A DNA stretch of 64,000 bases from a virus. Its lineage: Duplodnaviria > Caudoviricetes. Below the pieces are notes generated by a model, which made no database searches, was not told where the DNA came from, and saw only the letters and a program-made list of their open reading frames with translations. Positions 42,433 through 55,900 of the stretch are shown here, one piece after another. The first letter of the stretch is position 1; the number at the start of each line of letters is the position of its first letter. The stretch lies in the IMG/VR virus record IMGVR_UViG_3300021255_002694; one strand, written 5' to 3'. The translations under genes and the position numbers were made by a program.

Positions 42433-42442
42433 GGTAATTAAA

Positions 42443-44155
42443 ATGGAACTTAGTAAACAGCAGAGAGAAATTGTTGATTCCAAAAGTAAGAAAATAATTG
42501 TTGATGCTGGTTCTGGTTCTGGTAAAACACGAGTTCTAACAGAGAGAGTTAGAAAGTTACTCAGCAGCGGAGTAAACCCATACTCCGTTGTTGTGATAAC
42601 TTTCACAAACATGGCAGCTAATGAGTTGTATGACAGATTGTCAGATGTTAAAAACTCGGATAAATGCTTTATTGGAACAATACATGCATATGCTCACAAG
42701 CTATTAAAGAAATCAGGATATGATTTTGATATATTTTCTGAATACTATCAGACTTTATACATGACAGAGTTGTTAAAGAAATATGGATACTATGCAACCG
42801 TTGATGACTATAATTTATTCTTAAAATATGATAAAATGATTGCATCAGGAAAAATGCAAAAATCTGATCTAAGAAACAAATTCACTGATTACAAAGTATA
42901 TGATGAACTAATGGCACTTCTCGGCAGAGTAAAGCGATCATCATATAAAGAAACGGTTGTTACAATGTGCAAAGAAAACAATGTAATAACTTTTGATGAA
43001 CTAATTGATTTAGCAACAAAGTATTTTAAGGACAGTAACACGAAATTAGAATATCTTTTTGTTGATGAACTTCAAGATATTGGTTATCTTGAATATAACT
43101 TCTTGCTTAGTTTGAATGCTGAAAACTACTTCTTTATCGGTGACGATTATCAATGTCAACCAGCCGGAACAAAGGTGAATATTGTTTGTCATCCAAATAC
43201 AGACATATCCGAAGTAAAGGTTGGAGATTGGATTCAGTCAGCAGAAAGAACATCTGATGGCAAGTTTTGTCATACAAATCTAATGAAGAGAGTTATCAAT
43301 GTTCAAAAGAGCATTTCACCAGAGATATATACTGTCAAAACTATTGACGGTAGAACATCATCATATACACCAAATCATAGATGTGTTGTTGGTGTATTTG
43401 ATAAAGAAACATGCAATATCCATATTGAAGAAGTGCTTGCAAAGAATCTGAATAAGTATATGTACGCTATTGTTATAAAGAATGATAGGTACATGTTTGA
43501 TCGGATTGTAAGTATAGATCATGTTGAAAAAGATACTGATGTTTACTGCCTAGAGGTTGATGATGGATTATATTTTGCAGACGGTATGCTTACACACAAC
43601 AGCATCTTTTCATTTAAAGGTGGAGATGTAAATATTTTCCTATCTTTAATGCATAATGAAGAGTGGCAACCATATTTTCTTACTGAGAACTACAGAACAG
43701 CAAGATCAATTTTAATGTATGCAAATTCCATTGTTCAGAATGCAGATGATATAATTAAAAAAGATGTTGAGTTCAAGAATGAAAATGTTGGAAGCCTTGA
43801 ATTTAACACAAAGTCACAGCTTGAAAAATTCTTATCTGACCTGAATCCAAATGATGATTGGTTTATTCTAACACGATCAAATAAGGAAATGAGCGCGATT
43901 GATTTAATTTTAAAGAAGTTGAATAAAGAACACTACTGCTTTAAGCAATCTACAACAGCACCTAAAAAGATCAATGAGATATTATCGAAGCCGTGTATAA
44001 AGGTTATGACAATACATGCATCTAAAGGTCTTGAATGTGATAATGTTGCACTGTATGGAAAACTGCCTGTAAAGGGAAAAGGTCAATCGGAAGAACTAAA
44101 AGTTTATTATGTCGGTATAACAAGATCAAAAGATAGATGTGTTATTTTTGTGTGA
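42443..44155 (+). CDS. UvrD/PcrA-family helicase containing a mini-intein
   Basis: AGSGSGKT, ITFTN.AA, VDELQD, IGDDYQ|SIFSF.G, LTENYR, MTIHASKGLE and YVGITR motifs. Confidence 0.92.
   Translation: MELSKQQREIVDSKSKKIIVDAGSGSGKTRVLTERVRKLLSSGVNPYSVVVITFTNMAANELYDRLSDVKNSDKCFIGTIHAYAHKLLKKSGYDFDIFSEYYQTLYMTELLKKYGYYATVDDYNLFLKYDKMIASGKMQKSDLRNKFTDYKVYDELMALLGRVKRSSYKETVVTMCKENNVITFDELIDLATKYFKDSNTKLEYLFVDELQDIGYLEYNFLLSLNAENYFFIGDDYQCQPAGTKVNIVCHPNTDISEVKVGDWIQSAERTSDGKFCHTNLMKRVINVQKSISPEIYTVKTIDGRTSSYTPNHRCVVGVFDKETCNIHIEEVLAKNLNKYMYAIVIKNDRYMFDRIVSIDHVEKDTDVYCLEVDDGLYFADGMLTHNSIFSFKGGDVNIFLSLMHNEEWQPYFLTENYRTARSILMYANSIVQNADDIIKKDVEFKNENVGSLEFNTKSQLEKFLSDLNPNDDWFILTRSNKEMSAIDLILKKLNKEHYCFKQSTTAPKKINEILSKPCIKVMTIHASKGLECDNVALYGKLPVKGKGQSEELKVYYVGITRSKDRCVIFV
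43154..43600 (+). mobile_element. Mini-intein (149 aa, no endonuclease) in UvrD
   Basis: Starts CQPAGT, block B TPNH, ends VYCLEV....YFADGMLTHN followed by +1 Ser; it splits helicase motif III GD..QSI. Confidence 0.92.
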
Positions 44156-44165
44156 GGTATTTAAT

Positions 44166-44897
44166 ATGAGTGATTATGAATTTGATTTTGCAGGGTATGC
44201 AAATAGTGGATCAGAACAAACATCTAAAGATTTGGAAGAATTTGCAAAGGATGTTTTCGGAGAAGATGATCCAACAAAATCGCCTAAAGATAGATTTATT
44301 TTAATATACAAAAACAACATTAAACGCGAGGGATCAAGTGATCTTCTAGCATATCTTGAACAAAACGGTTTCTTTCATGCTCCGGCAAGTACAAAATATC
44401 ACGGTGCTTTTAAGGGTGGTTTGTGTCTACATTCTGTGAATGTATACCTCAATCTTCATGATGAATTACGTCAAATTTATGGTTCAGATTATAGAAAAGT
44501 ATACTCAGATGAAACAATCGCTATTGTATCTCTACTTCACGATGTTTGTAAGATTGATAAGTATATTGAAGTTGAGAAAAATGTTAAGAATAATGAAACA
44601 GGTCAATGGGAACTTACAAAGTGTTTTGAATACAATAAAGATCAGCCCAGACTTGGACATGGTTCATCTTCTGTTTACATGATTCTTGATCATATGAAAC
44701 TAACACTTGAAGAAAAACAAGCAATTCACTGGCATATGGGACCATTTGATCTATCTACATATGAATCAACATATGACATGGGTGATACATTCAATAAAAA
44801 TACTCTTGCATTTGCACTTCATATTGCAGACATGACAGCGACATATATTGACGAAAATGAATATTTTAAGCCGATAGAGGATGATTGTGATGGTTGA
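44166..44897 (+). CDS. HD-domain hydrolase
   Basis: APAS..YH....GGL..HS, LLHD.CK, GHG, WHMG and LH.AD motifs. Confidence 0.88.
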   Translation: MSDYEFDFAGYANSGSEQTSKDLEEFAKDVFGEDDPTKSPKDRFILIYKNNIKREGSSDLLAYLEQNGFFHAPASTKYHGAFKGGLCLHSVNVYLNLHDELRQIYGSDYRKVYSDETIAIVSLLHDVCKIDKYIEVEKNVKNNETGQWELTKCFEYNKDQPRLGHGSSSVYMILDHMKLTLEEKQAIHWHMGPFDLSTYESTYDMGDTFNKNTLAFALHIADMTATYIDENEYFKPIEDDCDG

Positions 44898-45222
44898 TAG
44901 TGATAAATTCAATTTCAGAGAACCTGAAACATTTTCATACGATAATGTGAATATTGGAATTGAACTTGAAGCAACAACATTAAATCCATCAGATGATGAA
45001 GTTATCGTTGTTCAATATCCGGATGTCTGTGTTTCAAGGAATGAAATTATGCATATTGCAGATGCACTCAGAAAATCTTTGAAACAAAGTTTTCCTAATA
45101 ATGACATCATATTCATTCCAAATGATATAAATGTTGATTCTTTTAATAGCAGAGAAGTGATTGATCGTCTTAGATCACTTGCTGATAAACTAGAGAAAGA
45201 ACATAGCGAAAATAATAATTGA
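44890..45222 (+). CDS. Hypothetical protein
   Basis: ORF coupled to the HD gene. Confidence 0.55.
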   Translation: MVDSDKFNFREPETFSYDNVNIGIELEATTLNPSDDEVIVVQYPDVCVSRNEIMHIADALRKSLKQSFPNNDIIFIPNDINVDSFNSREVIDRLRSLADKLEKEHSENNN

Positions 45223-45375
45223 TATAATATAAAAATTAAACATTATCATACCATATGAAGTACGCCTTTAATGGTGCTTTGGATAATTGAAATTGTGGCA
45301 GTTGTCTTTGGACTAAGCCTAAGTGCGGATGGATGCGTCTGTCCGCACTTTCAATTCAAAGGAGTGTGACTTTAT

Positions 45376-45618
45376 ATGGTAATGGTTGTCTCCATACTCG
45401 GTGCTTTATGTAGTCTTGGTGGAAATATTTTAATTATGCTGAAAAAGAAATCCGGTTGGATTGTATGGGTTCTCGGCAACTTATTTTGGATCATTTACAA
45501 TTTTATGTCAAAACCTAATTTACCGATGATAGTAATGTACCTAGTCTACATTGTTATAAATATACTCGGATATTGTAAATGGTGTGATAAAGAAGATAAG
45601 ACAAAGATTGAAATGTAA
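45376..45618 (+). CDS. Small 3-TM membrane protein, PnuC/SemiSWEET-like
   Basis: Three hydrophobic segments; GW..W...N..W and Y...N..GY..W patterns resemble half of PnuC. Confidence 0.6.
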   Translation: MVMVVSILGALCSLGGNILIMLKKKSGWIVWVLGNLFWIIYNFMSKPNLPMIVMYLVYIVINILGYCKWCDKEDKTKIEM

Positions 45619-45670
45619 ATATTGCACAAATTTCTGCATAATATGTGTTCTTATTTTTACTGAAAAATGC

Positions 45671-45699
45671 TTGACAAATCTAAAATAATGTGGTATACT
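45671..45699 (+). promoter_or_regulatory. sigmaA-type promoter
   Basis: TTGACA-17-TATACT with TG extension. Confidence 0.85.
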
Positions 45700-45725
45700 A
45701 TATTTGTAAACGAGAGGTGATATAT

Positions 45726-46010
45726 GTGAAAGAAGTAGAGAAAGAAATTGAAACTCTGATCGTAAGTAAATCACAGATCATCGTAACACTTAAAAGTGTT
45801 CTTATCAACGGTGAGTTCGGAACTGTCACATTTCGTAAATATAGCACTGCTTCGTTAGGAATGACATCTTTCGGTCTTTTACCGTTTGAGAGATACTTTA
45901 TAATTGCCGAAACATCAAACGATAAAGTAACTTTTGAATGCACTAAAGAGGAAGGAAATTCTCTTTATAAATATGTAAAGGATAAAAGAGAGTTCAATTT
46001 TGATGAATAA
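45726..46010 (+). CDS. Hypothetical protein
   Basis: GAGGTGA RBS before the GTG at 45726. Confidence 0.6.
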   Translation: MKEVEKEIETLIVSKSQIIVTLKSVLINGEFGTVTFRKYSTASLGMTSFGLLPFERYFIIAETSNDKVTFECTKEEGNSLYKYVKDKREFNFDE

Positions 46011-46041
46011 TATCTTTGTTGCAAGATAGGTTGATATAACT

Positions 46042-46335
46042 ATGTGGATGGATTTTTGTGATATCATAGAAACTATTATTGATGTAATAAAAGAGCATAT
46101 CAAACTCTTTATATTCATTGTTGTAGTGTTTATATGTCTATTTGTAGTTATTCCGAATCAGCGAATGAATGACATCAAATCTAGTAAATCTATACGTGTT
46201 GATGGAGTTACTTACAGCACATCACAAATAGAGTCTTTTGACATAATTTATCACAGATACGGCAAAGATGAATATGTAATCGTCTTAAAGGATGGAACAA
46301 AAATATATTTCAACGAATACACTTTAATAAACTGA
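46042..46335 (+). CDS. Membrane-anchored hypothetical protein
   Basis: One TM helix (LFIFIVVVFICLFVVI). Confidence 0.6.
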   Translation: MWMDFCDIIETIIDVIKEHIKLFIFIVVVFICLFVVIPNQRMNDIKSSKSIRVDGVTYSTSQIESFDIIYHRYGKDEYVIVLKDGTKIYFNEYTLIN

Positions 46336-46381
46336 GTGATTACTATATTGATTAGTAAACATAAAACTATGAGGTAAATTT

Positions 46382-46822
46382 ATGAGAAAGAATTGCAAGA
46401 CGTTTGAACAGTGGGCGGATTCACAATATAGTGAATATATAGGAGTTCGGGATAAGGAGTCCAGTCGCCTTAGAGATCATCTTACAGTTTCAGATGATAA
46501 GTTTGTAGAGGTTGCTATTTACAGCACAAGGACAAAGAAAATCGGAATTGCAAGGTGTCATGAGGATACATCTCAGATTTATATTGGCTATGCTGTTGCA
46601 TGGGCAAGATATAAGGGAGAGGCTATTCCTGAAATCCCAAACTACGAAGCTGTAAAGAATCTTGCAAATGGCGATCGGTTTGAATATCTTGGAAAAATGT
46701 ATGTTGCGGATTCTCAGTGTGATTTTAACAGCAACCTTAGATATTGTCTTGCAGTAAGAAAAAGTGATGAGAAACGAAAGATAACCACATTCGACAAAAA
46801 TTTGATTGTTGTGAAGCTGTAA
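46382..46822 (+). CDS. Hypothetical protein with a G.A.C..D....G..VA..R motif
   Basis: GAGGT RBS; motif shared with 51340-51756. Confidence 0.6.
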   Translation: MRKNCKTFEQWADSQYSEYIGVRDKESSRLRDHLTVSDDKFVEVAIYSTRTKKIGIARCHEDTSQIYIGYAVAWARYKGEAIPEIPNYEAVKNLANGDRFEYLGKMYVADSQCDFNSNLRYCLAVRKSDEKRKITTFDKNLIVVKL

Positions 46823-46838
46823 AAATTAAAAAAAAAAT

Positions 46839-46909
46839 AGGAAGTTAGTTAAGTGGTAGAACGGCAGTCTCCAAAACTGCATACAGAGGTTCGATTCCTC
46901 TACTTCCTG
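46839..46909 (+). tRNA. tRNA-Trp(CCA)
   Basis: AGGAAGT/ACTTCCT acceptor, GCAGT-CTCCAAA-ACTGC anticodon arm, TTCGATT T loop. Confidence 0.9.
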
Positions 46910-46916
46910 TTCATAC

Positions 46917-46989
46917 GTGCCTGTAGCTCAGTTGGTAGAGCAACGCCCTTTTAAGGCGAAGGTCATGGATTCGAGTTCCATCAGGCACA
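46917..46989 (+). tRNA. tRNA-Lys(TTT)
   Basis: GTGCCTG/CAGGCAC acceptor; CGCC-CTTTTAA-GGCG anticodon arm. Confidence 0.9.
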
Positions 46990-47048
46990 CTCATTGACAT
47001 TTATATAGGTAAGACACTTTAATGAACTGACAAAAGCATTTTAATTAT

Positions 47049-47136
47049 TTGACATTTTCTAACCTCACTTTCTATAAAGAACCAAATCCTGATCAGGTTC
47101 TAGTCGAAATAGTTTTCGATTTGTTTGAGATCAGGA
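47049..47136 (+). ncRNA. Antisense-segment + scaffold RNA, copy A
   Basis: TTGACATTTTCTAACCTCACTTTC, then AAAGAACC / stem TCCTGATC / AGGTTCT / hairpin / TGTTTGA / GATCAGGA. Confidence 0.65.
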
Positions 47137-47173
47137 ATCATAGATTTTATGAAAAAAAAATTCAAAAAACCAC

Positions 47174-47202
47174 TTGACAAAATTAAAAAATTGTGATATA
47201 CT
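47174..47202 (+). promoter_or_regulatory. sigmaA-type promoter driving the ncRNA/tRNA cluster
   Basis: TTGACA-17-TATACT with TG extension and an A-tract UP element. Confidence 0.88.
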
Positions 47203-47208
47203 ATATAT

Positions 47209-47295
47209 GTAATTGACATAGAATTACTCCTATTGGCAAAAAACCATTACAGCTAGGTTTCAATAAGTGCAAGTTATTGTTTTTGAAGCTGTTAA
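47209..47295 (+). ncRNA. Antisense-segment + scaffold RNA, copy B
   Basis: TTGACATAGAATTACTCCT, then CAAAAAACC / ACAGCT / AGGTTT / CAATAA..TTATTG / TTTTTGA / AGCTGT. Confidence 0.65.
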
Positions 47296-47404
47296 GCATT
47301 TAGTGAATTACACTACCAAAAACGGAAAGTATTGTTAGTGATTCAAAAAAAAACCAAAGCAACTAGGTTTCAGATAATTTCACATTCTGTTTTTGAAGTT
47401 GCTT
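47296..47404 (+). ncRNA. Scaffold RNA, copy C (variable 5' segment has no clear anti-SD)
   Basis: CAAAAAAAAACC / AAGCAACT / AGGTTT / CAGA..TCTG / TTTTTGA / AGTTGCTT. Confidence 0.6.
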
Positions 47405-47604
47405 ATATTCGAGTGCTTGAAACAGGAGTGGGGTAATCCATTTAAGGCATATGGCATGTACAGTAACCATTAGAGTTCTAGGAAACTCTTTTGGAGCTGA
47501 TTGCATGTATCGTCACAGGAGATGACTCAGATGTGTTTGATTTCCTAGAATCACACATACCACGATTCAAGTAGTGGCACTCCTGTTTCAAACACTTGAG
47601 TATA
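47404..47604 (+). ncRNA. tRNA-like kissing-loop RNA 1
   Basis: ~27-bp closing stem, a T-arm-like CCAC-GATTCAAGTA-GTGG, and complementary hairpin loops CTAGGA (47478) and TCCTAG (47543). Confidence 0.65.
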
Positions 47605-47605
47605 T

Positions 47606-47677
47606 TCCCCTATAGTTCAGTTGGTAGAATGTGGGACTGTTAATCCTAAGACACTGGTTCAAGTCCAGTTGGGGGAG
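47606..47677 (+). tRNA. tRNA-Asn(GTT)
   Basis: Cloverleaf; anticodon loop CTGTTAA. Confidence 0.9.
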
Positions 47678-47685
47678 TTCATTAT

Positions 47686-47759
47686 GGTTCGGTAGTTCAG
47701 TTGGTTAGAATGCTTGCCTGTCACGCAAGAGGTCGTGGGTTCGATCCCCATCCGAATCG
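47686..47759 (+). tRNA. tRNA-Asp(GTC)
   Basis: Cloverleaf; CTTGC-CTGTCAC-GCAAG. Confidence 0.92.
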
Positions 47760-47765
47760 CTCAAA

Positions 47766-47923
47766 TCACATGGCAGCAAAAATCTTGGTTGAAACAAATG
47801 AATGAGTGGCTATAGGTGATAATATGTAGATGAAAATGCTCACACCTTACCATATGCACCATAGAACCGATTGAGAATAGGGTGTAAAAGCCTTGACTAA
47901 AAGTTTAATGCTCATTGTGTGAT
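47766..47923 (+). ncRNA. Unknown structured RNA
   Basis: ATCACAT/GTGTGAT closing stem, CTATAGGTG/CACCATAG stem, ACACCT/GGGTGT pseudoknot. Confidence 0.45.
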
Positions 47924-47963
47924 CGCCTAAATAAAGCTGGGAATAGGGCGAAATTAAAAAAAT

Positions 47964-48110
47964 CACCTAGTTTCGGTGCAACACTTATCACGGTGCATCG
48001 TTGGTAAGTGTCAAGTGGTATCCGAATATACAAACCGGATGATATTACAGAGGAATGCACTTCTTTGTAGTATTTGAAAGTCGTTGAGGGTTCGATTCCC
48101 TCCTAGGTGT
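47964..48110 (+). ncRNA. tRNA-like kissing-loop RNA 2
   Basis: Perfect 7-bp acceptor CACCTAG/CTAGGTG, canonical T arm GAGGG-TTCGATT-CCCTC, and complementary loops GTGCAT (47993) and ATGCAC (48055). Confidence 0.7.
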
Positions 48111-48207
48111 TTAAAATAAAAGGGAGTTAAGTCGTGGCGGCTTGAGCCTGTTTTAAGGTTCGGGGTGTACCGTACCACGCTAGCCCAAAGTCCATAAACA
48201 CCCATAT

Positions 48208-48294
48208 GCTGGTGTGGTGAAATTGGAAGACACAGCGTGCTTAAACCGCGCTTCCGGATGCGGAGTATGGGTTCAAGTCCCATCACCAGTACCA
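48208..48294 (+). tRNA. tRNA-Leu(TAA)
   Basis: Long variable arm, loop CTTAAAC, encoded CCA. Confidence 0.88.
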
Positions 48295-48320
48295 ATATAT
48301 TAAAGCAAAATTTATTTAAT

Positions 48321-48410
48321 GGCAGCGTGGCAGAGTCCGGCTTAATGCACCAGTCTTGAAAACTGGCGTTCCGAAAGGGACCGTTGGTCCGAATCCAACC
48401 GCTGTCGCCA
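48321..48410 (+). tRNA. tRNA-Ser(TGA)
   Basis: CCAGT-CTTGAAA-ACTGG, long variable arm, encoded CCA; the T loop is TCCGAAT. Confidence 0.9.
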
Positions 48411-48412
48411 AT

Positions 48413-48485
48413 GCTGATATAACTCAACTGGCAGAGTAGTGGTTTTGTAAACCACAAGTTGTGGGTTCAAGTCCCTCTATCAGCT
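48413..48485 (+). tRNA. tRNA-Thr(TGT)
   Basis: GTGGT-TTTGTAA-ACCAC. Confidence 0.9.
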
Positions 48486-48506
48486 TCAAAAATTTACAGT
48501 AAAGGC

Positions 48507-48535
48507 TTGACAAAAACAGAATTTTATGCTATAAT
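48507..48535 (+). promoter_or_regulatory. sigmaA-type promoter
   Basis: TTGACA-17-TATAAT with TG extension (perfect consensus). Confidence 0.9.
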
Positions 48536-48541
48536 ATTTGT

Positions 48542-48630
48542 ATGACATACTTTATCAACTCTTTTGAATCAAAAAACATGCAGTGATGTTTCTATGGATA
48601 TGATTTATGTCTATAGTTTTAGTAACTACA
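48542..48630 (+). ncRNA. Antisense-segment + scaffold RNA, copy D (divergent)
   Basis: ATGACATACTTTATCAACTCTTT, then CAAAAAACAT / GCAGT / ATGTTT / CTATGGA..TCTATAG / TTTTAG / ACTAC. Confidence 0.55.
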
Positions 48631-48637
48631 AAATTAA

Positions 48638-48711
48638 CGGAGTGTGGCTCAGTTTGGTAGATCGCCTGGTTTGGGACCAGGATGCCGCAGGTTCAAGTCC
48701 TGTCACTCCGA
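48638..48711 (+). tRNA. tRNA-Pro(TGG)
   Basis: CCTGG-TTTGGGA-CCAGG. Confidence 0.92.
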
Positions 48712-48718
48712 TTTAACT

Positions 48719-48794
48719 GGAAGGGTAGCTCAGACGGTTAGCAAGCAGCGGTCTTATAAACCGCAGGTCGTGGGTTCGAGTCCCACCTCTTCCA
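48719..48794 (+). tRNA. tRNA-Ile(TAT)
   Basis: GCGGT-CTTATAA-ACCGC anticodon arm, G1-C72, A73. Confidence 0.85.
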
Positions 48795-48888
48795 TTCATG
48801 CTCTACGGAGCGTAATTGATCTTCTGCTATACTGATCAAATCTAATACATCATCACGAAGGCAGAGTAGTGGTGATGTAATTATGAAT
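48794..48888 (+). ncRNA. Small kissing-loop RNA 3
   Basis: Three hairpins inside an ATTCAT/ATGAAT stem; loops TTCTGCT and GGCAGAG are complementary. Confidence 0.55.
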
Positions 48889-48928
48889 AACATTATACTT
48901 GCTTTAATTGTAAGTAAATCATGTTTTT

Positions 48929-49015
<87 letters not shown>

Positions 49016-49019
49016 GTTT

Positions 49020-49168
49020 AGTCATAGGACCGTTGGAGGCTACGATTTACCGATGCAGTCCAGTCAAGGTAATCCCCTAAATCTACACAGGGAACAGAGG
49101 GTATGCAAACGGTGTGTTACTCTAGCAGTAGAAAACATAGCACCGTGACTGATAGGAGAGACTATCAC
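49020..49168 (+). ncRNA. Unknown pseudoknotted RNA
   Basis: AGTCA/TGACT closing stem; ACCGTT/AACGGT, TTACC/GGTAA and TCTAC/GTAGA crossing pairings. Confidence 0.45.
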
Positions 49169-49176
49169 TTATATAT

Positions 49177-49314
49177 GCAGGAATCGTCTAAATGTGGTTG
49201 CGACCAAAAAGAAAGAGTTTGCATTATTCCTAGGTAAGTGATGTGAACTTTAGTAATCCGTAGGACACGAACTGATCATTCGGATGTAGGAGTAGCGACC
49301 TGCTTCCTGCACCA
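49177..49314 (+). tRNA. Remodelled tRNA-Ile(GAT)-like RNA with a ~65-nt D-loop insertion
   Basis: GCAGGAA/TTCCTGC-ACCA acceptor, CGAA-CTGATCA-TTCG anticodon arm, non-canonical T loop AGTAGCGA, and two hairpins inserted in the D loop. Confidence 0.65.
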
Positions 49315-49318
49315 ATAT

Positions 49319-49390
49319 GGCTCTTTCGTCAAGTGGTTAAGACCTCTGTCCGCAAAGCAGATGTCGCTGGTTCAAATCCGGCAAGAGCCT
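49319..49390 (+). tRNA. tRNA-Cys(GCA), with C at position 33
   Basis: TCTGT-CCGCAAA-GCAGA; U73. Confidence 0.85.
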
Positions 49391-49395
49391 TATAT

Positions 49396-49660
49396 GCCCA
49401 AGCACCAGTCCTGAAAAGCACGGTTTGTGTAGCACACAAATGTCAGATGCATAAAGTCAGGTTAAAGTTGAAATTCGCTTGTGCAAAGAATACGGAACTT
49501 CACCGTAGGAGAACAGGTAGACGTACCCAAGAGTAAGTTGCAAGGGCTTAGAACTCTTAGCACGTAGCGTCAACGGAGTCCGGAATCAGGTTAGGATGGT
49601 TTCTTTGAAATATATGCACCGATAAATGTGGTGTCCTGATGAATGACGTAAAAAACCATT
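49396..49660 (+). ncRNA. One or two unknown highly paired RNAs
   Basis: GCCC/GGGC, CCTGA/TCAGG, TACGG/CCGTA and AAGAGT/ACTCTT; then CGTCA/TGACG, ATCAGG/CCTGAT and ATGGTTT/AAACCAT. Confidence 0.5.
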
Positions 49661-49662
49661 TT

Positions 49663-49737
49663 GCAGATGTAGTTTAATGGCTAGAACCTGTGACTTCCAC
49701 TCACAAGACGGGGGTTCGATTCCCCTCATCTGCTCCA
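49663..49737 (+). tRNA. tRNA-Gly(TCC)
   Basis: TGTGA-CTTCCAC-TCACA; TCCA end. Confidence 0.92.
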
Positions 49738-49743
49738 TTATTT

Positions 49744-49815
49744 GCCCCATTAGTTCATCGGACAGAATAAATCCCTTCTAAGGATCAGAGCGCGGTTCAA
49801 TTCCGTGATGGGGTG
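49744..49815 (+). tRNA. tRNA-Arg(TCT)
   Basis: ATCC-CTTCTAA-GGAT anticodon arm. Confidence 0.88.
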
Positions 49816-49978
49816 TCAAAACGCATCGAAATATCTGAATACCATAGCAACATGGAAACAGATAGACAAAATTTTATTTTTGTTCGTTCCCCGATTAGAT
49901 GTGTTTCAATTAAATAGGGAAAACTGCACATATAAGTTGCATTATACATGAAAGTGCAGATATATAAAGGAGATAAAC

Positions 49979-50317
49979 ATGAAATCAGTGCTTATTGTGA
50001 TCATAGCAATGTATCTTGTTTTTGCTATAACTGATGTAATTTGTTGTCCGATTCTATATCAGAAAGTGTTTTATAGAGTATGCAAGGATTCATTCAATGA
50101 TGATCAAGATGCATCGGTGGTTTCAAGAAAACTTGCTAGAGAATTTACATTTCGTTTTGCTTTTGTTCCACTTGCAAATATAGCAATTTTCATATTTTCA
50201 TTTTTAGACAATGATATTTTATGTGAACTTGAAATGTTTACATATAATATGTTTATGGAAGATGAAGATGCTAAATATGCACTTGCAGAGGAATTGAAAG
50301 AAATTAAGAAAGATTAA
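49979..50317 (+). CDS. Hypothetical membrane protein inside the tRNA cluster
   Basis: AAGGAG RBS; two hydrophobic segments. Confidence 0.65.
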   Translation: MKSVLIVIIAMYLVFAITDVICCPILYQKVFYRVCKDSFNDDQDASVVSRKLAREFTFRFAFVPLANIAIFIFSFLDNDILCELEMFTYNMFMEDEDAKYALAEELKEIKKD

Positions 50318-50321
50318 ATAC

Positions 50322-50403
50322 GGGAGTGTCGCCTAGTGGCAATGGCATCTGACTGTAAATCAGACGGTTTTATCCTTCGTTGGTTCAAGTCCAACCACTC
50401 CCA
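50322..50403 (+). tRNA. tRNA-Tyr(GTA)
   Basis: TCTGA-CTGTAAA-TCAGA; long variable arm. Confidence 0.92.
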
Positions 50404-50413
50404 TTATCTATAA

Positions 50414-50497
50414 TGCCGTGTCGCCAAGTGGAAAGGCAGCGGACTTTGACTCCGCCAGCATTTATGCTTTACGTTGGTTCAAATCCAGCCACGGCAA
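50414..50497 (+). tRNA. tRNA-Gln(TTG) with a long variable arm
   Basis: U1-A72, GCGGA-CTTTGAC-TCCGC, extra arm AGCAT-TT-ATGCT. Confidence 0.85.
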
Positions 50498-50504
50498 TTC
50501 AATA

Positions 50505-50579
50505 GGTCCTATCGTCTAGTCTGGTCTAGGACGAGAGATTTTCATTCTCTAAACATCGGTTCAAATCCGGTTAGGATCA
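50505..50579 (+). tRNA. tRNA-Glu(TTC)
   Basis: AGAGA-TTTTCAT-TCTCT. Confidence 0.9.
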
Positions 50580-50584
50580 TCTAA

Positions 50585-50824
50585 GACCACATGCTAATAT
50601 TCTTTGCGTGTTATACTTATGGCATGTTTCCTTTATTTAGAAATCCTGTGTCTTTTATTCATTTTTGCACAGGTCGGGTTGTCCATATGTCCGTACCTCC
50701 TTTGCGGTTTTTTACTCATACCTAAAGTAAACACGCTGCCGGAACAACACCTATGGTGAATGGTACGAAATGACCAGTCTATCTCTCTGCCATACGGGTA
50801 AAGACAGAGAGATAGATTCCGGAA
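50585..50824 (+). ncRNA. Multi-hairpin sRNA with an exposed anti-SD loop, followed by a cloverleaf
   Basis: CCGTA-CCTCCTT-TGCGG hairpin and GCGTGTT/AACACGC long-range pairing; CCGGAA/TTCCGG-closed cloverleaf at 50739-50822. Confidence 0.5.
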
Positions 50825-50857
50825 ACAATAAAAAAAAAAGAAATGTGTGGTGATTTC

Positions 50858-51343
50858 ATGAACAATGAGGGACTGATAAAATGTTTAGAGGGACTTCAGC
50901 AAGCACAGGATACAATAGATTCATTAAGCACTGAAATTGAAGAACTGAAAAACTCTAAAAAATGTCAATCATTACTATCATATATTCAGGGAAGTATATA
51001 CAGACCTGTTAAAGTTTTTTCTAAACAACCTAAATGTGGAAAATGTAATTCAAACGGCATGATCCCAGTAAAAGATGAATTCTTTACAAGATACGTTGAT
51101 TGCGATTGTCAAAAATTAAAATTTGAATATCAAGTTCAAAAATTAGATGTTGTATCAACGTCATATATTGATGATACTGATGATATTACATATGATTGTG
51201 TTGTTGGTAATGATCTAATTTCAGTTGCAGAAAAGTATCTGTACGATAGATTTGATAATAAGCATCTTGCATTAGACAGCAAGAATGTTTTTTATAAGAA
51301 TGAAGAAGATTGTAAAAAATTTGTGGAGGAAAAAAACAAATGA
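50858..51343 (+). CDS. Hypothetical protein with a Zn-finger-like C..C...C.C
   Basis: KCGKCNSNG...DCDC. Confidence 0.6.
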   Translation: MNNEGLIKCLEGLQQAQDTIDSLSTEIEELKNSKKCQSLLSYIQGSIYRPVKVFSKQPKCGKCNSNGMIPVKDEFFTRYVDCDCQKLKFEYQVQKLDVVSTSYIDDTDDITYDCVVGNDLISVAEKYLYDRFDNKHLALDSKNVFYKNEEDCKKFVEEKNK

Positions 51344-51756
51344 AAGTTAAAGGTGTACCGCTATTCGTGACATATAAGCATATTGATTATGTCAACGATA
51401 AAACAGGTGAAGAAGTGCATAGAACAGTTGCGCGATCTATTGTAGATTACTACAATTTGCCTAAAATTATCGCAACTACATTTATGGACATGTTTGCTAA
51501 TACTTCTGATATGTTTGGTGATCGCGCTGTAGAACTTGTTGCAGAAACAGCCTGTAAGGGCGGAGACACATACAATGAAACAACAGGTGAGAAGATCGCT
51601 CGTAAGAAGATCATGAAGAAATATATGTCTCTTGTTTCACAGGCATCTGCAAAGAAGATCGCTGATAATAATAAGGAGATTGAACTTCTTAATGACCTTG
51701 AACACAGTGCAGTACGATGTGAGTCAGATATTATTGATTATCTGAGAAAACAGTAA
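51340..51756 (+). CDS. Hypothetical protein with an A.C...DTYN..TG..IAR.K motif
   Basis: Common phage motif, shared with 46382-46822. Confidence 0.65.
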   Translation: MKVKGVPLFVTYKHIDYVNDKTGEEVHRTVARSIVDYYNLPKIIATTFMDMFANTSDMFGDRAVELVAETACKGGDTYNETTGEKIARKKIMKKYMSLVSQASAKKIADNNKEIELLNDLEHSAVRCESDIIDYLRKQ

Positions 51757-51818
51757 TTCTGCAAATACTAAATCGCTTTTTAGTCTATTCCATTCACGCT
51801 CCTTTATAATATATGCTC

Positions 51819-51849
51819 TAGCCTAGTTTTACAACTAGGCTACTTTTTT
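51819..51849 (+). terminator. Intrinsic terminator
   Basis: TAGCCTAGTT/AACTAGGCTA followed by a T tract. Confidence 0.8.
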
Positions 51850-51941
51850 GTTTCTTTATAGATTATATCACAGAAAAAACTGAATTTACAAGAATATTCA
51901 AACACTATAAGTATGATATTTTGTTGTTTTGGGGTGATAGT

Positions 51942-52934
51942 ATGTCAGTTCCGTACATTATTGATGGTGTTGTTGGTGACGGCACAGAACAAAATCCATA
52001 TCAAGTTACAACAATGGATCAAATGTTCTCATGTTGTGCTGTTGTAGATGCATATGTGTGTCTTATGAATGATATACACTGTGAATTAGATCAGAAATAT
52101 AAAGATTTTGTTACAAATACTCTTGTTATTGATTGTGCAAAACTGTATTCAGAAGGCACACGTAAAATCATATATAACTGGAATTGCAGACCAAAACTGA
52201 TAAATTCATCCATTCCGGATGTAACATTATCTACACGCTGTTGCATAAGAAATGAGTCTGCCGGAACATTGATAGATAATATATCTTTTGAGGGTTGTGT
52301 GTTTAGACAAACATATTATAATCAAAGTACGTTAAGCTGGTCATGCCTACTTTATTTTTCAGATACAACTAAGATAACAAATTCTAATTTCTCTTTCTTT
52401 ATGGATTTCTCTAAATCAATAACAGGTGATAATCAAAGTGGTGACATATATCATTATATACAGGGCGGAAGATTTTATAAAAGTTCCATTCATTTTAGTG
52501 GAAATCAGATTCAGTTCTTATTCAAATCAGGTTATTACCCACATATGGCACTGTTTTCTCCAACTAGATTTGATTGTGGTGAATTGTTTGCAACAAATCT
52601 TTACTTTAATCAATCAGGTTCAATAGCGGTATCAGATTACCCGTATATAAAGAATGTGACAAGGAGTCTTGTTGTAATTGAGAATGGTTATTTTGACAAT
52701 GATCACGGAAATGTGTATACTTACGTACTTACAAACTCATGTAGATATAATATAATATATTTTACTGGAAAACTGCGTAGATCGCCAGGTACTTGGTATC
52801 CATTCACAACAGATTGTGAATATCCTAATCTTATATATAGTGATCTGTTATCTTCAAAGGATGGTGCAGTTGTTGTACGTGATCCTAGCTTATTATCAAA
52901 TATAGATTATATACATTCATTAGGAATATTTTAA
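51942..52934 (+). CDS. Beta-helix / adhesin-like protein, paralog 1
   Basis: N-terminal GDGTEQNPYQV...Y..L.NDI motif typical of GLUG/M26-associated beta-helical proteins. Confidence 0.55.
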   Translation: MSVPYIIDGVVGDGTEQNPYQVTTMDQMFSCCAVVDAYVCLMNDIHCELDQKYKDFVTNTLVIDCAKLYSEGTRKIIYNWNCRPKLINSSIPDVTLSTRCCIRNESAGTLIDNISFEGCVFRQTYYNQSTLSWSCLLYFSDTTKITNSNFSFFMDFSKSITGDNQSGDIYHYIQGGRFYKSSIHFSGNQIQFLFKSGYYPHMALFSPTRFDCGELFATNLYFNQSGSIAVSDYPYIKNVTRSLVVIENGYFDNDHGNVYTYVLTNSCRYNIIYFTGKLRRSPGTWYPFTTDCEYPNLIYSDLLSSKDGAVVVRDPSLLSNIDYIHSLGIF

Positions 52935-52951
52935 TGCAGAGGTGATTATAT

Positions 52952-55900
52952 ATGTCAGTACCATATCAAATAGACGGGATTTCCGGTGATGGAACAGAAT
53001 CAAGCCCATACCTAGTTCACAATATAGATGAAATATTGTCATGTATAGCTGTCACTGATGCATATGTCAAGCTAGTATCGGATATTTATTGTAAAAATGA
53101 TAAAAAGTATAAAAATACAGTTGCATTTAAGTTTGATGTTCAATGTAAAAAATTTTATGCTGATGAGGCAAAATACATATATGGTTTGAAAATATCTGGT
53201 GGATCATTGAAGTATGGTGCATTTATGTCGGCGGTAGCTAATAGTGAAATAGAAAACATACATTTTATTGGTACAATATTTTATAGACAGTATATAGATA
53301 CAGAAACACAGGCTGGATACAATGATTATGATTTTATGTTTGATGATACAACTACAGTTAGGAATTGTACGTTTCAACTGAATGTTTTTCCACACGCATA
53401 CTGTAGAGCTACCGGATTGATAAAAGGTGGAATCGTAGAAAGATGTGCCTTTGTATATAAGTATACAGACTATGTTAAAACATATAATTCTTATCGTTCA
53501 AGTGTGCTGAACGTAACAGGTAATGGTATAAATCCTAAAAAGGCTTCCTATTGTTATTTTTATATTGATGGATATACTTTCAGGTGGCGTGAGGGATATT
53601 CAATGTTCAAGCGTGTTGATCATAGTGCAATATATGTAAACAACATGCATATAATAGAACTGCATAATACAACAAGTGAATCAATATATGGTAATGATAC
53701 AAGTGATTCATCGAACCTGATATTTTGGAATATTTCATATTTTGCTCCTATTGGTATGACACAGTACGAAAATGCAACTTTATATTTCGGAGCTTCGTCA
53801 AAATCTCTTGTGGACATATCATTTGATGATTTTGCATACAGAAACAGAATACATGAATCTATAAGCAAACCATGTGTAAGATCAACAATTTCAGATATGA
53901 GAAATCCATCTTATCTATCTACACAAAGCATGATTAGTTCATATACTTTAGTTGAAAATGGATTTGATTCAGATGTATGGTATTTCAGAGATAACTTCAT
54001 AATGCCTATACCAGTTGGTGTATTATATGTTGAACCAACATATGAGTATGCCTATGAAGATTTTACAACTATCGGTAAAGCAACGTGCGGATTCTATGCA
54101 CCGATAGATACAATAAGACCAATGGGAGCATTTGCACAATCACAAGTAGAAAGTATATCAATACCAATATATACAACAGAACTTGGTAGATTTACATTTT
54201 ATGGATCAAGTCTCAACAATGTGAGAATATCTCCTGATTGTTATTGGTATGATCAAACTTTCCCTGATGATGTTGAATTTGATTTCTATTATAGCGTAAT
54301 ACTGTTACCACAGACAACATATGAGTTTAATATTTCTGATAATGCTGTATTACCTGATGCGGATCAGATAGAAATAGAAGTGACTGACGGCAATAGCGTA
54401 ATTAGAAGTCTTAGTAATTTTGAATATCAAAATTTTTACACAGACATACCTGTTAGAAATAGCACAGGAAGTGTCTACTACTATTTCAACAATAGACAAA
54501 ATAGTATACACACAGATTTCATATATACTGTGTATGGTGATAATTTATTTAGTGGTTCATTTCAACAAGGGTTAATTGATCAAAGTGGTAACATTCAAAG
54601 TGACTATAAAACAATAACATCTGATAAATGTCGTGTAGGTTCTGGAAATTATTTTTGTAGTGTACTTCCGAGAACATCTGAACTTCAAGTACATAAGTAT
54701 ATTCCACCGATTACACAAATTGCATCTACAGCATCGGTTGTTCCGTCAAGTATGTCTGTATCAACTGCAACACAGCATGAAACAGGACAATTACCACTAT
54801 CAATTCTAACTGATAATGAAACAATAGATGATTATACTGTGTATGGAAATGTTAATGCTTCAAGTCTTGATGTATCACCTGAATCACCAGCAACACTGTC
54901 ATATCTATCTAGGAATATTGTAAATGTGTTCCCAAGTTCACCAAAGCAGAATACTACATCTAACGGAATAACATTTGAAAGTAATGGTTTTGGTGGATAT
55001 CATATAGTAGGTAAGGCAACATCATCTGTTCAGTTTGTAGCAAATTTATCCGGTTCTGTAACATTTCCAAAATCAATAAATAACGGCGGAACAGGATGTC
55101 TATATTTTGGAAATACAACATCTGTTGGTGGTATAACAGTAAGATTTATGAATGGATCATCATCGCAGGATTATTGGAACTCTGGCTATATAACAGGTAT
55201 TCCGCATGTAACACAAAATTATGGAACACTAGCAAATAAAACAGTAAACAGACTTAGATTTGAAATCAGTTCTGGATCAACATGCGATATTTGGTTCTAT
55301 ATAATGCTTACAACAGACGGTATTGGAACAAGTGCGAAAAGAGATTTTGCAGTATATGGAAGTAAATTTACAATGAATAGAATAACATCATCAGGAGTAA
55401 ATACATATATACCAACAAATGATTGTGAGATGCTAAAAATACCAAATCACAATATTTCAGATAGTTTAACATATACTGAAAATCAGGTGAGATCAAACGT
55501 AGGAAAATTGGTTTTGACAGGTTCAGATAATATAAACTGGACTGCTGATCAAAATTATTTCTACTGTTCAATATCTGATATAGGTGCAAAGAGTAATTCA
55601 TCAATTTTCTGTACACATTTACTCGAAGTTCAATCTATTTCTGATATGCAGTATGGTAAATGTATGTGTACAGATATACTGATGCTAGGTCTTGTATCAC
55701 AAGATATACAAACCGTAGCTGATCTAAATTCATATCTGCAACAACAGTATACAAACGGTACACCAGTTGTTATACTGTATGAAAAATCACAACAAGAGGT
55801 TTATCAGCAGACCTTTCCGGAGTTTGTTATAACAAAAGAGAAATATTTAGGCTCTGTAAACGGAGATTTTGCAAATACTCCAATTCAATTTAATCTTGAT

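Follow-up and report, generated by a model that had tools for sequence, protein, structure and literature searches.

A covariation-supported RNA pseudoknot recurring in the tRNA operons of rumen jumbo phages, with a possible role at the 3' end of leader RNAs

Background

The DNA analysed here (the window: one stretch of 64,000 nt from the caudoviricete IMG/VR virus record IMGVR_UViG_3300021255_002694) contains a cluster of 16 tRNA genes, and within this cluster lie four copies, A to D, of a ~60-nt module, all of them on the transcribed strand only. Downstream of tRNA-Trp (46838-46910) and tRNA-Lys (46917..46990, + strand), a leader segment (leader A, 47049..47078, +) runs into module A (47078..47136, +). 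A strong sigma70-type promoter follows (47174..47202, +; TTGACA-17-TATACT, TG-extended, 11/12), which drives leader B (47209..47240, +), module B (47241..47292, +) and module C (47351..47404, +). In this genome a 200-nt structured insert separates module C from tRNA-Asn (47605..47678, +); in one relative, copy C ends 6 nt (ATGTTT) before this tRNA. A second, consensus promoter of the sigma70 type (48507..48535, +; TTGACA-17-TATAAT, TG-extended, 12/12) drives leader D (48542..48573, +), module D (48574..48629, +) and tRNA-Pro (48638..48711, +), the latter starting 8 nt downstream of the module.

An earlier note on this DNA had described these elements as a modular family of antisense RNAs, in which a variable 5' guide directed against ribosome-binding sites and start codons is fused to a conserved, covarying scaffold; the tRNA cluster around them had been overlooked. 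Arrays of tRNA genes are common in large phages, and their long non-tRNA spacers go unannotated; what we describe here is a covariation-supported RNA fold recurring in such spacers. In addition, we offer the testable idea that tRNAs may serve as processing signals freeing capped leader RNAs.

Results

All four copies of the module proved to be real, and together with the homologues found in relatives they make up 10 distinct instances. Copies A, B and C share the described order of A-tract, stem 1, AGGTTYY, hairpin, U-run with GA and stem 1'. Of the earlier layout, stem 1 (S1) stands, with compensatory changes; the pairing of the A-tract with the first U-rich strand (helix P1) had been missed. 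Module A consists of P1a (AGAACC, 47078-83), L1 (47084-86), S1a (TCCTGATC, 47087-94), P1b (GGTTCT, 47096-101), hairpin S2 (~47102-47121), U-strand 2 (TGTTTGA, 47122-28) and S1b (GATCAGGA, 47129-36). Module B is built from an A-tract (47238-45, with P1a AAACC at 47241-45), S1a (ACAGCT, 47249-54), P1b (GGTTT, 47256-60), S2 (47261-79), U-strand 2 (TTTTTGA, 47280-86) and S1b (AGCTGT, 47287-92), and module C likewise from an A-tract (47345-55, with P1a AAACC at 47351-55), S1a (AAGCAACT, 47357-64), P1b (GGTTT, 47366-70), S2 (~47372-89), U-strand 2 (~47389-96) and S1b (AGTTGCTT, 47397-404). The four copies score 52 (A), 55.6 (B), 62 (C) and 40 bits (D) against the model.

Copy D is divergent. It retains the A-tract (48571-78, with P1a AAACA at 48574-78), P1b (TGTTT, 48587-91), the hairpin S2 (48592-48616) and GTTTTAG, with U-strand 2 at 48617-24, and its stem 1, GCAGT (S1a, 48580-84) with ACTAC (S1b, 48625-29), contains a C.A mismatch. 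Because C48581T in relatives' contigs restores a perfect stem 1 (GTAGT:ACTAC), copy D is a true member. Relatives show further differences in stems: T48612C turns a G.U into a G-C pair in S2 of module D, A47287G turns a U-A into a U.G pair in S1 of module B, and the variant of copy A in locus L051 carries a compensatory S2 change (TCGAAA/TTTCGA to TTGAAA/TTTCAA). Among the differences listed between near relatives and the window, those inside modules fall in stems (repairing or wobble-compatible), in loops or in L1, and none fall in the A-tract or the U-strands.

Judged from these comparisons, the ~52-60 nt of the module fold on themselves into an H-type RNA pseudoknot, since its two conserved helices interleave: the A-tract pairs with the first U-rich strand (P1), and the loop of the P1 hairpin (S1a) pairs with the 3' tail (S1b) to form S1, with the variable hairpin S2 and the conserved U-run+GA strand lying between the S1a/P1b side and S1b. 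The order P1a < S1a < P1b < S1b, by which an H-type pseudoknot is recognised, is found in every instance. Both helices are kept by compensatory changes across the 10 distinct instances; in a structure-anchored parse 60 of 61 S1 cells and 49 of 49 P1 cells are canonical, a level reached by none of 2000 partner shuffles, and this covariation signal would be identical for a pseudoknot and for two mutually exclusive helices. Counted on an imperfect MAFFT alignment, 83.9% of cells are paired versus 70.3% with shuffled partners (0 of 500 shuffles as high), and 10 of 14 pairs show changes on both sides (S1 8/8, P1 2/6); slid-register controls give only 28-48% paired. The P1 junction pair occurs as C-G, U-A and A-U, and another P1 pair as A-U or G-C. 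L1 is mostly 1-3 nt long, with 0 or 5 nt in certain parses, and spans an S1 of 5-8 bp, with a junction of 0-2 nt, lengths judged fit for coaxial stacking by rule-of-thumb geometry only.

Invariant nucleotides gather at the junction and the stems are variable. In all copies the strands GGTTT(C/T) and T4-6-G/A-A between S1 and S2 form a U-rich internal loop, and U-strand 2, which runs parallel to the A-tract, may add U.A-U triples; Hoogsteen pairs are invisible to covariation, and the strand polarity permits such triples. In copy A, a single lineage, three changes coincide: the A-tract has a G, U-strand 1 a C and U-strand 2 a G. For some copies a Watson-Crick three-way junction, joining the A-tract with both U-strands, would fit equally well.

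That the elements match no recognised small RNA family and do not resemble CRISPR, as had been claimed, agrees with our searches. Rfam 15 holds no family for the module (cmscan of 44000-54000, both strands, E up to 1); the same scan returned only the 16 tRNAs and two weak unrelated matches outside the modules. The copies differ in both stems and spacing, so that within the window the near-identical units of a CRISPR repeat or of an RNA anti-CRISPR mimic were not found. Scanning the window revealed no terminator-like site, whether intrinsic terminator or attenuator, at or just 3' of the modules; the S2 stems are A/U-rich (e.g. AAUAA/UUAUU) and S1b comes after the U-run, unlike in a terminator. 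In copy A, AGGTTCTAG recalls the core of a preQ1-I riboswitch; this candidate was dropped, as the other copies lack it and Rfam gave no match.

A model built from eight copies found a copy outside its training set in L023 (34 bits, E 0.004 in 189 kb) as well as the variant of copy A in L051 (46 bits). Two models (R1 and R2) gave no comparable match outside the tRNA-region copies in three whole relatives and 259 kb of loci. Exact consensus pattern scans of IMG/VR yielded 21 and at least 119 matches, all without stem-1 pairing or plainly terminator-like, and exact-pattern scanning thus does not pick up this family; a generic pseudoknot descriptor (Python) was discarded as far too permissive. Relatives were sought via the adjacent 146-aa ORF and the recombinase, by which few loci were obtained. 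All instances belong to one narrow clade of rumen jumbo phages (recombinase identity at least 67% where measurable), and the independent evolutionary events are consequently few. In the phage GenBank collection DNA similarity reached only tRNA genes and the replication protein query was unmatched, indicating that there is no close cultured relative. A Pfam scan of the flanking ORFs was uninformative and recognised neither RNA-binding nor nuclease domains. In relatives, the module region often shows insertions and deletions. Among sequencing runs the stretch was present only in its source sample, and a single RNA run (metatranscriptome, Logan contigs) covered it at a depth of 2-3, possibly from DNA.

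The modules are confined to leaders and spacers of tRNA operons, where they lie either 32-64 nt past a strong sigma70-type promoter or after a tRNA, and they usually abut a tRNA: the gap between module end and tRNA is 8 nt for copy D, 5 nt for L022, 3 nt for L023_1, 5 nt for L024, 4 nt for L023_2 and 9 nt for L053. Modules A and B have no following tRNA, and the module of L027 lies 28 nt from one. TG-extended consensus promoters precede the module at ~32-64 nt in B, D, L022, L023_1/L024, L027 and L053; C and L023_2 have no nearby promoter. None of four strong TG-extended mRNA promoters in the window is followed by a module, and most tRNAs of the cluster have none in front. In L029, a more distant relative, a consensus promoter stands directly before the tRNA with neither leader nor module, so leader plus module looks like an added unit rather than a requirement for tRNA expression.

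The segments upstream of A, B and D have reverse complements that do read as Shine-Dalgarno (SD), spacer and ATG, a pattern that is rare on the minus strand of the window (0.38 per kb; P = 0.009 per 30-nt window). As the earlier note had it, the corresponding minus-strand ORFs are trivial: that of A reads MSNN*, that of B has 39 aa and crosses the promoter, and that of D has ~20 aa. Real minus-strand genes were ruled out, these ORFs of 4, 39 and ~20 aa entering promoters or, in L023, running antisense to a tRNA. Leader A contains CAT-N8-CCTC and, apart from T47060C, is unchanged in L051 and in relatives' contigs. Leaders B and D start at the predicted +1 of their promoters, also as previously read. 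Leader B begins with a 5'-terminal hairpin (GTAATT/AATTAC) followed by a single-stranded CTCCT (predicted mean P(unpaired) 0.69), and in one relative it carries an 8-nt duplication, GACATAGA; in leader D the anti-SD (CTCTT) is weak. Whether TGACAT is in fact a -35 box had been named as a point that could overturn the guide reading, and TTGACAT, found at 46994, 47049 and 47213, resembles the -35 box of the phage's promoters. The objection applies to leader A, itself a promoter-like site (TTGACA-18-TATAAA, without TG extension); in B and D no -10 element comes after the TGACAT.

Homologues in related phages bear differing 5' segments before the conserved module. Across nine independent copies, CAT-N4-10-(CTCC/CCTC/TCCT) precedes four, compared to 0.8-1.7% of background 40-nt windows, and it precedes two of the six copies outside the set that had defined the pattern (binomial p ~0.004). 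The motif is missing before C, L022, L027 (no CAT) and L053, and D has a loose pattern only; in the leaders of L022, L053 and C, purine-rich, SD-like runs stand in place of an anti-SD. At the sequence level the expected enrichment of the 5' segments in anti-SD and CAT is real (4/9 versus ~1-2%), but it is not universal. Structure prediction leaves the anti-SD single-stranded in B, D, L027 and L023_2 (in the last of these, P(unpaired) is 1.0 and the motif sits in a hairpin loop); that of L023_1 is predicted to base-pair inside the leader itself.

The guides had been expected to match start codons in candidate hosts; in the genomes searched, such matches stayed at chance level. Within the 64-kb window (~20% of the phage genome), complements to the guides reach at most 10-12 nt, no longer than shuffled guides give, and the best of those checked (at 62036) is internal to an ORF. 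In relative G002 (198 kb) both L023 guides, and in relative G003 (93 kb) the shared guide, match only themselves at up to 3 mismatches in 18 nt. A 19-mer of guide A has 8 exact matches in GTDB genomes versus ~9 expected by a rough estimate; these include the start site of whiA in three Blautia species and one Erysipelothrix gene start, and were set aside given the chance-level total. Guide B gave 17 matches with up to 3 mismatches in 401 Lachnospiraceae genomes versus ~12 for a reversed control; a match to the start of a DAK2-like gene in one of the whiA-matching Blautia genomes (3 mismatches, 2 of them wobble-compatible) was likewise treated as chance. Guide D had zero matches in the host-genome search. 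Of the proposed modular guide-plus-scaffold family, the covarying scaffold, the varying 5' segments and the motif enrichment hold, and no target beyond chance emerged from the window, the two relatives or the bacterial genomes searched.

Discussion

Our preferred explanation, to which we assign a probability of roughly 40%, is that RNase P, by cutting at the neighbouring tRNA, sets free a leader RNA with a pseudoknot-capped 3' end. Transcription would begin at a strong early-type promoter, or read through from an upstream tRNA, and RNase P would cut the 5' end of the next tRNA, 3-9 nt past the module, thereby freeing a leader RNA of ~85-130 nt with the pseudoknot as its 3' end. The pseudoknot would shield this RNA from 3' exonucleases in place of a terminator and would prevent mispairing of the leader with the tRNA. 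As no terminator-like site occurs at the modules, downstream processing is the obvious route to a 3' end. The fold of the module, its conservation and its position come directly out of the comparisons above; from them we infer the release by RNase P, the 3' capping and any activity in trans. Since modules A and B have no tRNA after them and that of L027 is 28 nt away from one, release by RNase P alone cannot account for all units. The variable 5' part carries, in roughly half of them, an often-exposed CAU...CUCC segment that could base-pair with ribosome-binding sites, and a trans antisense role of the leader RNA would be plausible. If the leaders are stable and active against SD sequences, they would represent a new route of phage small-RNA biogenesis and a compact scaffold for engineered antisense RNAs.

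Known systems offer partial parallels. The 3' ends of MALAT1 and MEN-beta carry an ENE triple helix and a tRNA-like mascRNA that is cut by RNase P. Like MALAT1, the module combines a stem-loop bearing a U-rich internal loop with a genomically encoded A-rich tract, and it is a structured element immediately 5' of a tRNA(-like) RNase P substrate, so that by analogy the 3' end of the upstream RNA would come from RNase P and not from a terminator. In MALAT1, however, the A-rich tract is 3'-terminal, whereas that of the module lies 5' of the stem-loop and internal to the transcript, and the fold is therefore an H-type pseudoknot; moreover, the A-tract finds its Watson-Crick partner in the 5' U-strand, through no more than 3-5 A-U pairs, Hoogsteen triples are putative, and the module resides in a phage of bacteria beside a real tRNA. 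The E. coli 3'ETS-leuZ sponge and the stable 'species 1/2' RNAs of the phage T4 tRNA cluster are likewise non-tRNA RNAs encoded in tRNA operons, freed there by the tRNA-processing machinery, and T4 is an earlier case of a phage whose tRNA cluster contains additional stable RNAs. We know of no sequence or structure similarity between the module and these RNAs, and the module is a repeated pseudoknot 5' of tRNAs, not a 3' trailer or tRNA-like RNA.

It is possible, on balance doubtful, that the module acts only in cis on untranslated operons, by pausing, by put-like or rrn-leader-like antitermination, or as a pre-tRNA folding insulator or processing aid, the leader being degraded. Its occurrence behind promoters of tRNA or non-coding transcripts and not behind the four TG-extended mRNA promoters, its promoter-proximal position in six instances and its abutting of tRNAs in six to seven would all fit, as would the differing stems of copies within one transcript, expected if cross-pairing must be avoided. 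On the other hand, the distance to the promoter varies from 32 to 64 nt, C and L023_2 have no nearby promoter, the tRNA of L029 is driven directly by its promoter without a module, most tRNAs of the cluster are not preceded by one, and the anti-SD enrichment would be left unexplained. Even if only a folding insulator, the module would still be a useful annotation feature for jumbo-phage tRNA operons.

The broader antisense model, in which every unit is a trans-acting RNA whose hypervariable guide blocks the SD or AUG of chosen host or phage mRNAs and whose module is a scaffold for stability and/or a protein handle, seems unlikely. Motif enrichment, the exposed anti-SD of four copies, the promoter-driven B and D with their 5'-terminal hairpins, the own promoters of L022, L023_1/L024, L027 and L053 and the dismissal of minus-strand genes speak for it; against it stand the four copies without the motif, the lack of an own promoter for C and L023_2, the sequestered anti-SD of L023_1, the overlap of guide A with a promoter-like site and the target searches, which gave shuffled-level complements in the window, self matches in relatives and chance-level matches genome-wide. 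In phages P1/P7 the C4 antisense RNA, which needs RNase P for its maturation, likewise acts by blocking a ribosome-binding region. Its target is known and lies in the phage itself (icd/ant), and its fold is tRNA-like; for the module, a pseudoknot beside a bona fide tRNA, the searches above found no target, and the C4 Rfam model gave no match in the cmscan of 44000-54000. Firmicute small RNAs such as RsaE/RoxS and RNAIII have exposed C/U-rich anti-SD seeds, C-rich loops and terminator ends. The leaders share with them exposed pyrimidine-rich motifs complementary to SD sequences; unlike in those RNAs, a CAU accompanies the motif at the spacing of a start site, and half of the units lack the motif.

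Quite unlikely is the most far-reaching combination of these ideas, namely terminator-less small RNAs, 'punctuated' by tRNAs, that would be driven by a strong promoter, cut at the 3' end by RNase P, sealed by an ENE-like A.U triplex pseudoknot and equipped with exchangeable 5' segments antisense to the SD-AUG of specific host mRNAs, together a modular, retargetable form of translation silencing. Should the A-tract and U-strands indeed make a triplex, the range of triple helices that stabilise RNA would widen from lncRNAs and eukaryotic viruses to include bacteriophages, and ENE-like triplex capping, if true, would have no earlier example among bacterial viruses.

We regard it as very unlikely that the pseudoknot is a riboswitch-type ligand aptamer, or that an RNA-binding protein or nuclease of phage or host uses it as a handle. 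Its size, H-type topology and conserved A-rich and U-rich strands are like those of triplex-containing riboswitch pseudoknots (PMC7583470), and invariant nucleotides at a junction of variable stems would suit such a site. The telomerase RNA, SAM-II and preQ1-II pseudoknots, which contain U.A-U major-groove triples, are similarly H-type, with A/U-rich conserved strands and ~50-60 nt, and in these loop 1 is the U-rich strand and occupies the groove of stem 2 (PMC7583470); in the module, by contrast, the U-rich strand belongs to loop 3, which also contains an inserted hairpin. The Rfam search (E up to 1) matched no riboswitch, an expression platform is missing (neither terminator nor start site downstream), and in the neighbouring ORFs neither RNA-binding nor nuclease domains were recognised.

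Finally, a DNA-level or coincidental origin, as promoter or operator pieces or a small mobile repeat with no RNA function, is highly improbable: the recurring, -35-like TTGACAT boxes and the frequent indels in relatives would fit it, but the TGACAT of B and D is followed by no -10 element, the copies occur on the transcribed strand only, and the compensatory changes, seen in three helices, speak for selection acting on a single strand in its folded state.

Module architecture and pseudoknot fold

The tRNA cluster of the window (46838-50579; 16 tRNA genes) contains four copies of an RNA module of ~55 nt, named A (47078-47136), B (47241-47292), C (47351-47404) and D (48574-48629). Direct sequence reading bears out the layout proposed for A, B and C in the earlier note, with an A-tract, stem 1, AGGTTYY, a hairpin, a U-run ending in GA and stem 1' in this order. 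Module D keeps all of these parts except a clean stem 1 (GCAGT:ACTAC, one C.A mismatch), which is made perfect by C48581T in close-relative contigs from two other metagenomes. In these contigs, T48612C also converts a G.U into a G-C pair in the module D hairpin and A47287G a U-A into a U.G pair in stem 1 of module B, and L051, an assembly variant of module A, shows a double change in the hairpin (TCGAAA/TTTCGA to TTGAAA/TTTCAA).

A further helix, P1, was overlooked in the earlier note and is formed by the 3' end of the A-tract and the first U-rich strand. This pairing covaries, being AGAACC:GGTTCT in module A, AAACC:GGTTT in B and C, AAACA:TGTTT in D and in L023_2 (the second of two instances in the related locus L023), AAAACCT:AGGTTTT in L022 and TAAAACT:AGTTTTA in L023_1 and L024. 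Since the strands follow each other as P1a, S1a, P1b and S1b, so that P1 and stem 1 interleave, the module is predicted to be an H-type pseudoknot, a pair of mutually exclusive folds being less likely. When 11 sequences were aligned by plain MAFFT, 83.9% of the cells in both helices were paired compared to 70.3% with shuffled partners (a level reached by none of 500 shuffles), 10 of the 14 pairs were changed on both sides, and control registers slid by 1-3 columns gave 28-48% paired cells. A structure-anchored count gave 60/61 and 49/49 canonical cells for the two helices, values that are optimistic because the structure was fitted sequence by sequence. The third loop of the pseudoknot holds the hairpin, which is variable, and the U-run, which is conserved. 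The U-run is parallel to the A-tract, the polarity required for a putative U.A-U triple helix; some copies would be explained as well by a three-way junction, with the A-tract paired to the two U-strands.

The earlier note recognised no known sRNA family in the module, and likewise no Rfam family matches it. That it constitutes a new, small RNA family with a pseudoknot fold is a firm result. Other tRNA-operon-derived RNAs, 3'ETS-leuZ and T4 species 1/2, show some likeness, as does C4 of P1/P7, an RNase P-processed anti-RBS RNA; no model matches. Functionally closest is the MALAT1 3' end, with a U-rich internal loop and an encoded A-tract just upstream of an RNase P substrate, although the module lacks the 3'-terminal A-tract that defines the MALAT1 family. 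The topology is shared with triplex-bearing H-type pseudoknots (PMC7583470), but the module has no ligand platform.

Association with tRNA operons

The recombinase gene retrieved IMG/VR contigs L022-L024 (72-75% identity) and metagenome contig L027 (67%), and the ORF adjoining the tRNA cluster retrieved L051 and L053, related loci that together contribute seven further module instances. Those of L022, L023_1, L024, L027 and L053 lie ~39-64 nt downstream of a TTGACA-17-TATAAT/TATACT promoter with TG extension, and L023_2, detected by a model not trained on it, lies between tRNA-Lys and tRNA-Met. The distance from module end to tRNA is 3-9 nt in six cases (D, 8; L022, 5; L023_1, 3; L024, 5; L023_2, 4; L053, 9) and 28 nt to tRNA-Gln in L027; module C is 6 nt before tRNA-Asn in one relative without the structured 200-nt insert at 47405-47607, and modules A and B adjoin no tRNA. 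Whole-record searches of three IMG/VR relatives revealed no copies outside tRNA leaders, and none follows the four strong TG-extended protein-gene promoters of the window (22721, 26464, 32365, 45671). A second firm result is this strict association: the module belongs to the leaders and spacers of tRNA operons, in most cases immediately next to a tRNA. No terminator-like site is present at the modules.

In the more distant L029 (59% recombinase identity), a consensus promoter directly precedes the tRNA, without leader or module. Since tRNAs can evidently be expressed without them, leader and module seem to form an additional RNA product and not something that tRNA synthesis requires. The model that uses all findings, to which we assign a probability of roughly 0.4, is that the module punctuates tRNA transcripts: RNase P cleavage at the tRNA would free the leader RNA, and the pseudoknot would become its 3' cap, substituting for a terminator, and would also insulate the tRNA from the leader. 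A purely cis role, either co-transcriptional or as a processing aid, is a less probable alternative.

Leader segments and candidate targets

The earlier note proposed that the leaders of A, B and D are antisense guides against translation starts, carried on the module as scaffold. Reverse complements of 47049-47077 and 47213-47236, and weakly of 48543-48566, indeed read as SD-spacer-ATG, a pattern that is rare on the window's minus strand (0.38 per kb; P = 0.009 for one in a stretch of 30 nt). Of 9 independent modules, 4 are preceded within 40 nt by CAT-N4-10-(CTCC/CCTC/TCCT) versus 0.8-1.7% of background windows, including 2 of the 6 modules unknown to the earlier note (L023_1 and L023_2; binomial p ~0.004). 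This enrichment is real and the best support for the proposal, but the motif is not general: the full pattern is missing before module C, L022, L053 and L027, the last of which has an anti-SD without CAT, and in D the anti-SD is CTCTT only. Purine-rich SD-like runs take its place in the leaders of L022, L053 and module C; ACGGAAAG is shared by the leaders of module C (47323-47330) and L053 (~598-612), ~30-40 nt upstream of the A-tract, and GGAGAGGGAAG is present in that of L022, so that some leaders have SD-like instead of anti-SD-like runs. The anti-SD of L023_1 is predicted to pair with an SD-like run in its own leader, and the leaders of B and L027 begin with a predicted 5'-terminal hairpin. 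The earlier note would count its proposal as refuted if TGACAT proved to be the -35 box of real promoters, which bears on guide A, as it coincides with TTGACA-18-TATAAA; this site has no TG extension, unlike the phage's strong promoters, and a start from it would delete P1a.

The start-codon hits that the earlier note anticipated for the guides did not exceed chance in the window, in two relatives or in the bacterial genomes covered. Inside the window (~20% of the phage genome) the longest complements were 10-12 nt, the same as for shuffled guides. Both guides of G002, a relative 86% complete, match only themselves, and the one shared with G003 has only its self-match there too. For guide A, a 19-nt core that admitted the A/G variant of relatives had 8 matches in 185,579 species genomes versus ~9 expected by our own estimate; among them, three fall on the whiA start site in Blautia species and one on a gene start in Erysipelothrix. 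Guide B matches a DAK2-like gene start, with 3 mismatches, in one of these Blautia genomes, but in 401 genomes from that family matches of this kind were no more frequent than with the reversed pattern (17 versus ~12); guide D had zero matches. These start sites were discounted as targets given their chance-level frequency, and because TIR-like queries land on start sites by nature. With the motif not universal and no target found in the genomes covered, the full guide-scaffold antisense system is rather improbable, slightly more so than a cis role. An aptamer or protein handle is a minor alternative with little probability, and a DNA-level or chance explanation is very improbable.

In the three Blautia species (L059 6737-6755, L061, L064), the whiA stretch from SD to second codon is an exact 19-20-nt complement of the G-variant of guide A, the form in the phage's relatives; at chance level by match counts, it would merit renewed attention should the host turn out to be Blautia or one of its relatives. 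From one sheep-gut metatranscriptome, 151-nt Logan contigs (depth 2-3) cover 47021-47283 and 47783-48107; one contig spans the promoter and may therefore be DNA or read-through, and the contigs are uninformative on RNA ends.

Genome context and neighbouring elements

The window derives from a large phage genome and has a GC content of ~33%; all its ORFs of at least 200 aa are on the plus strand, and it encodes a DnaB-like helicase, primase, UvsX-like recombinase and clamp loader. An identical stretch is carried by a 323.5-kb metagenome scaffold; the full stretch is present in only one sequencing run, labelled gut metagenome, and bovine and sheep gut are among the sources of runs with a partial stretch. 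No close relative is present in the phage GenBank collection.

Module C and tRNA-Asn are separated by a structured RNA of ~200 nt (47404-47604), flush with both and closed by 27-nt inverted-repeat arms; in a close-relative contig 47405 is joined to 47608 with only ATGTTT between, which marks the element as an insertion that some strains have and others lack. A tRNA-like RNA at 47964-48110, with a 7-bp acceptor-type stem (CACCTAG/CTAGGTG), a canonical T-arm GGTTCGATTCC and large inserts, escapes both ARAGORN and the Rfam tRNA model. In relatives, ~810 nt are inserted directly after module A (47141-47153), and in another assembly (L049 1433-2107) tRNA-Trp is followed by an ORF of 224 aa that matches HNH_3 weakly, which together suggest homing-endonuclease-type traffic within the tRNA cluster. 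The spacer after tRNA-Glu (50585-50737) holds a minus-strand SD-ATG-like pattern at 50699/50700 and a terminator-like hairpin (50691-50707). The UvrD-like helicase (42422-44155) may contain an intein, judging from weak Hint and Intein_splicing matches among precomputed Pfam hits. L023 encodes a tRNA with a CTA anticodon (15590-15662; called Pyl by ARAGORN, amber-suppressor type), whereas the tRNA at the matching position in L024 (16633-16705) is called Cys(ACA); stop codons may thus have been reassigned in this group of phages.
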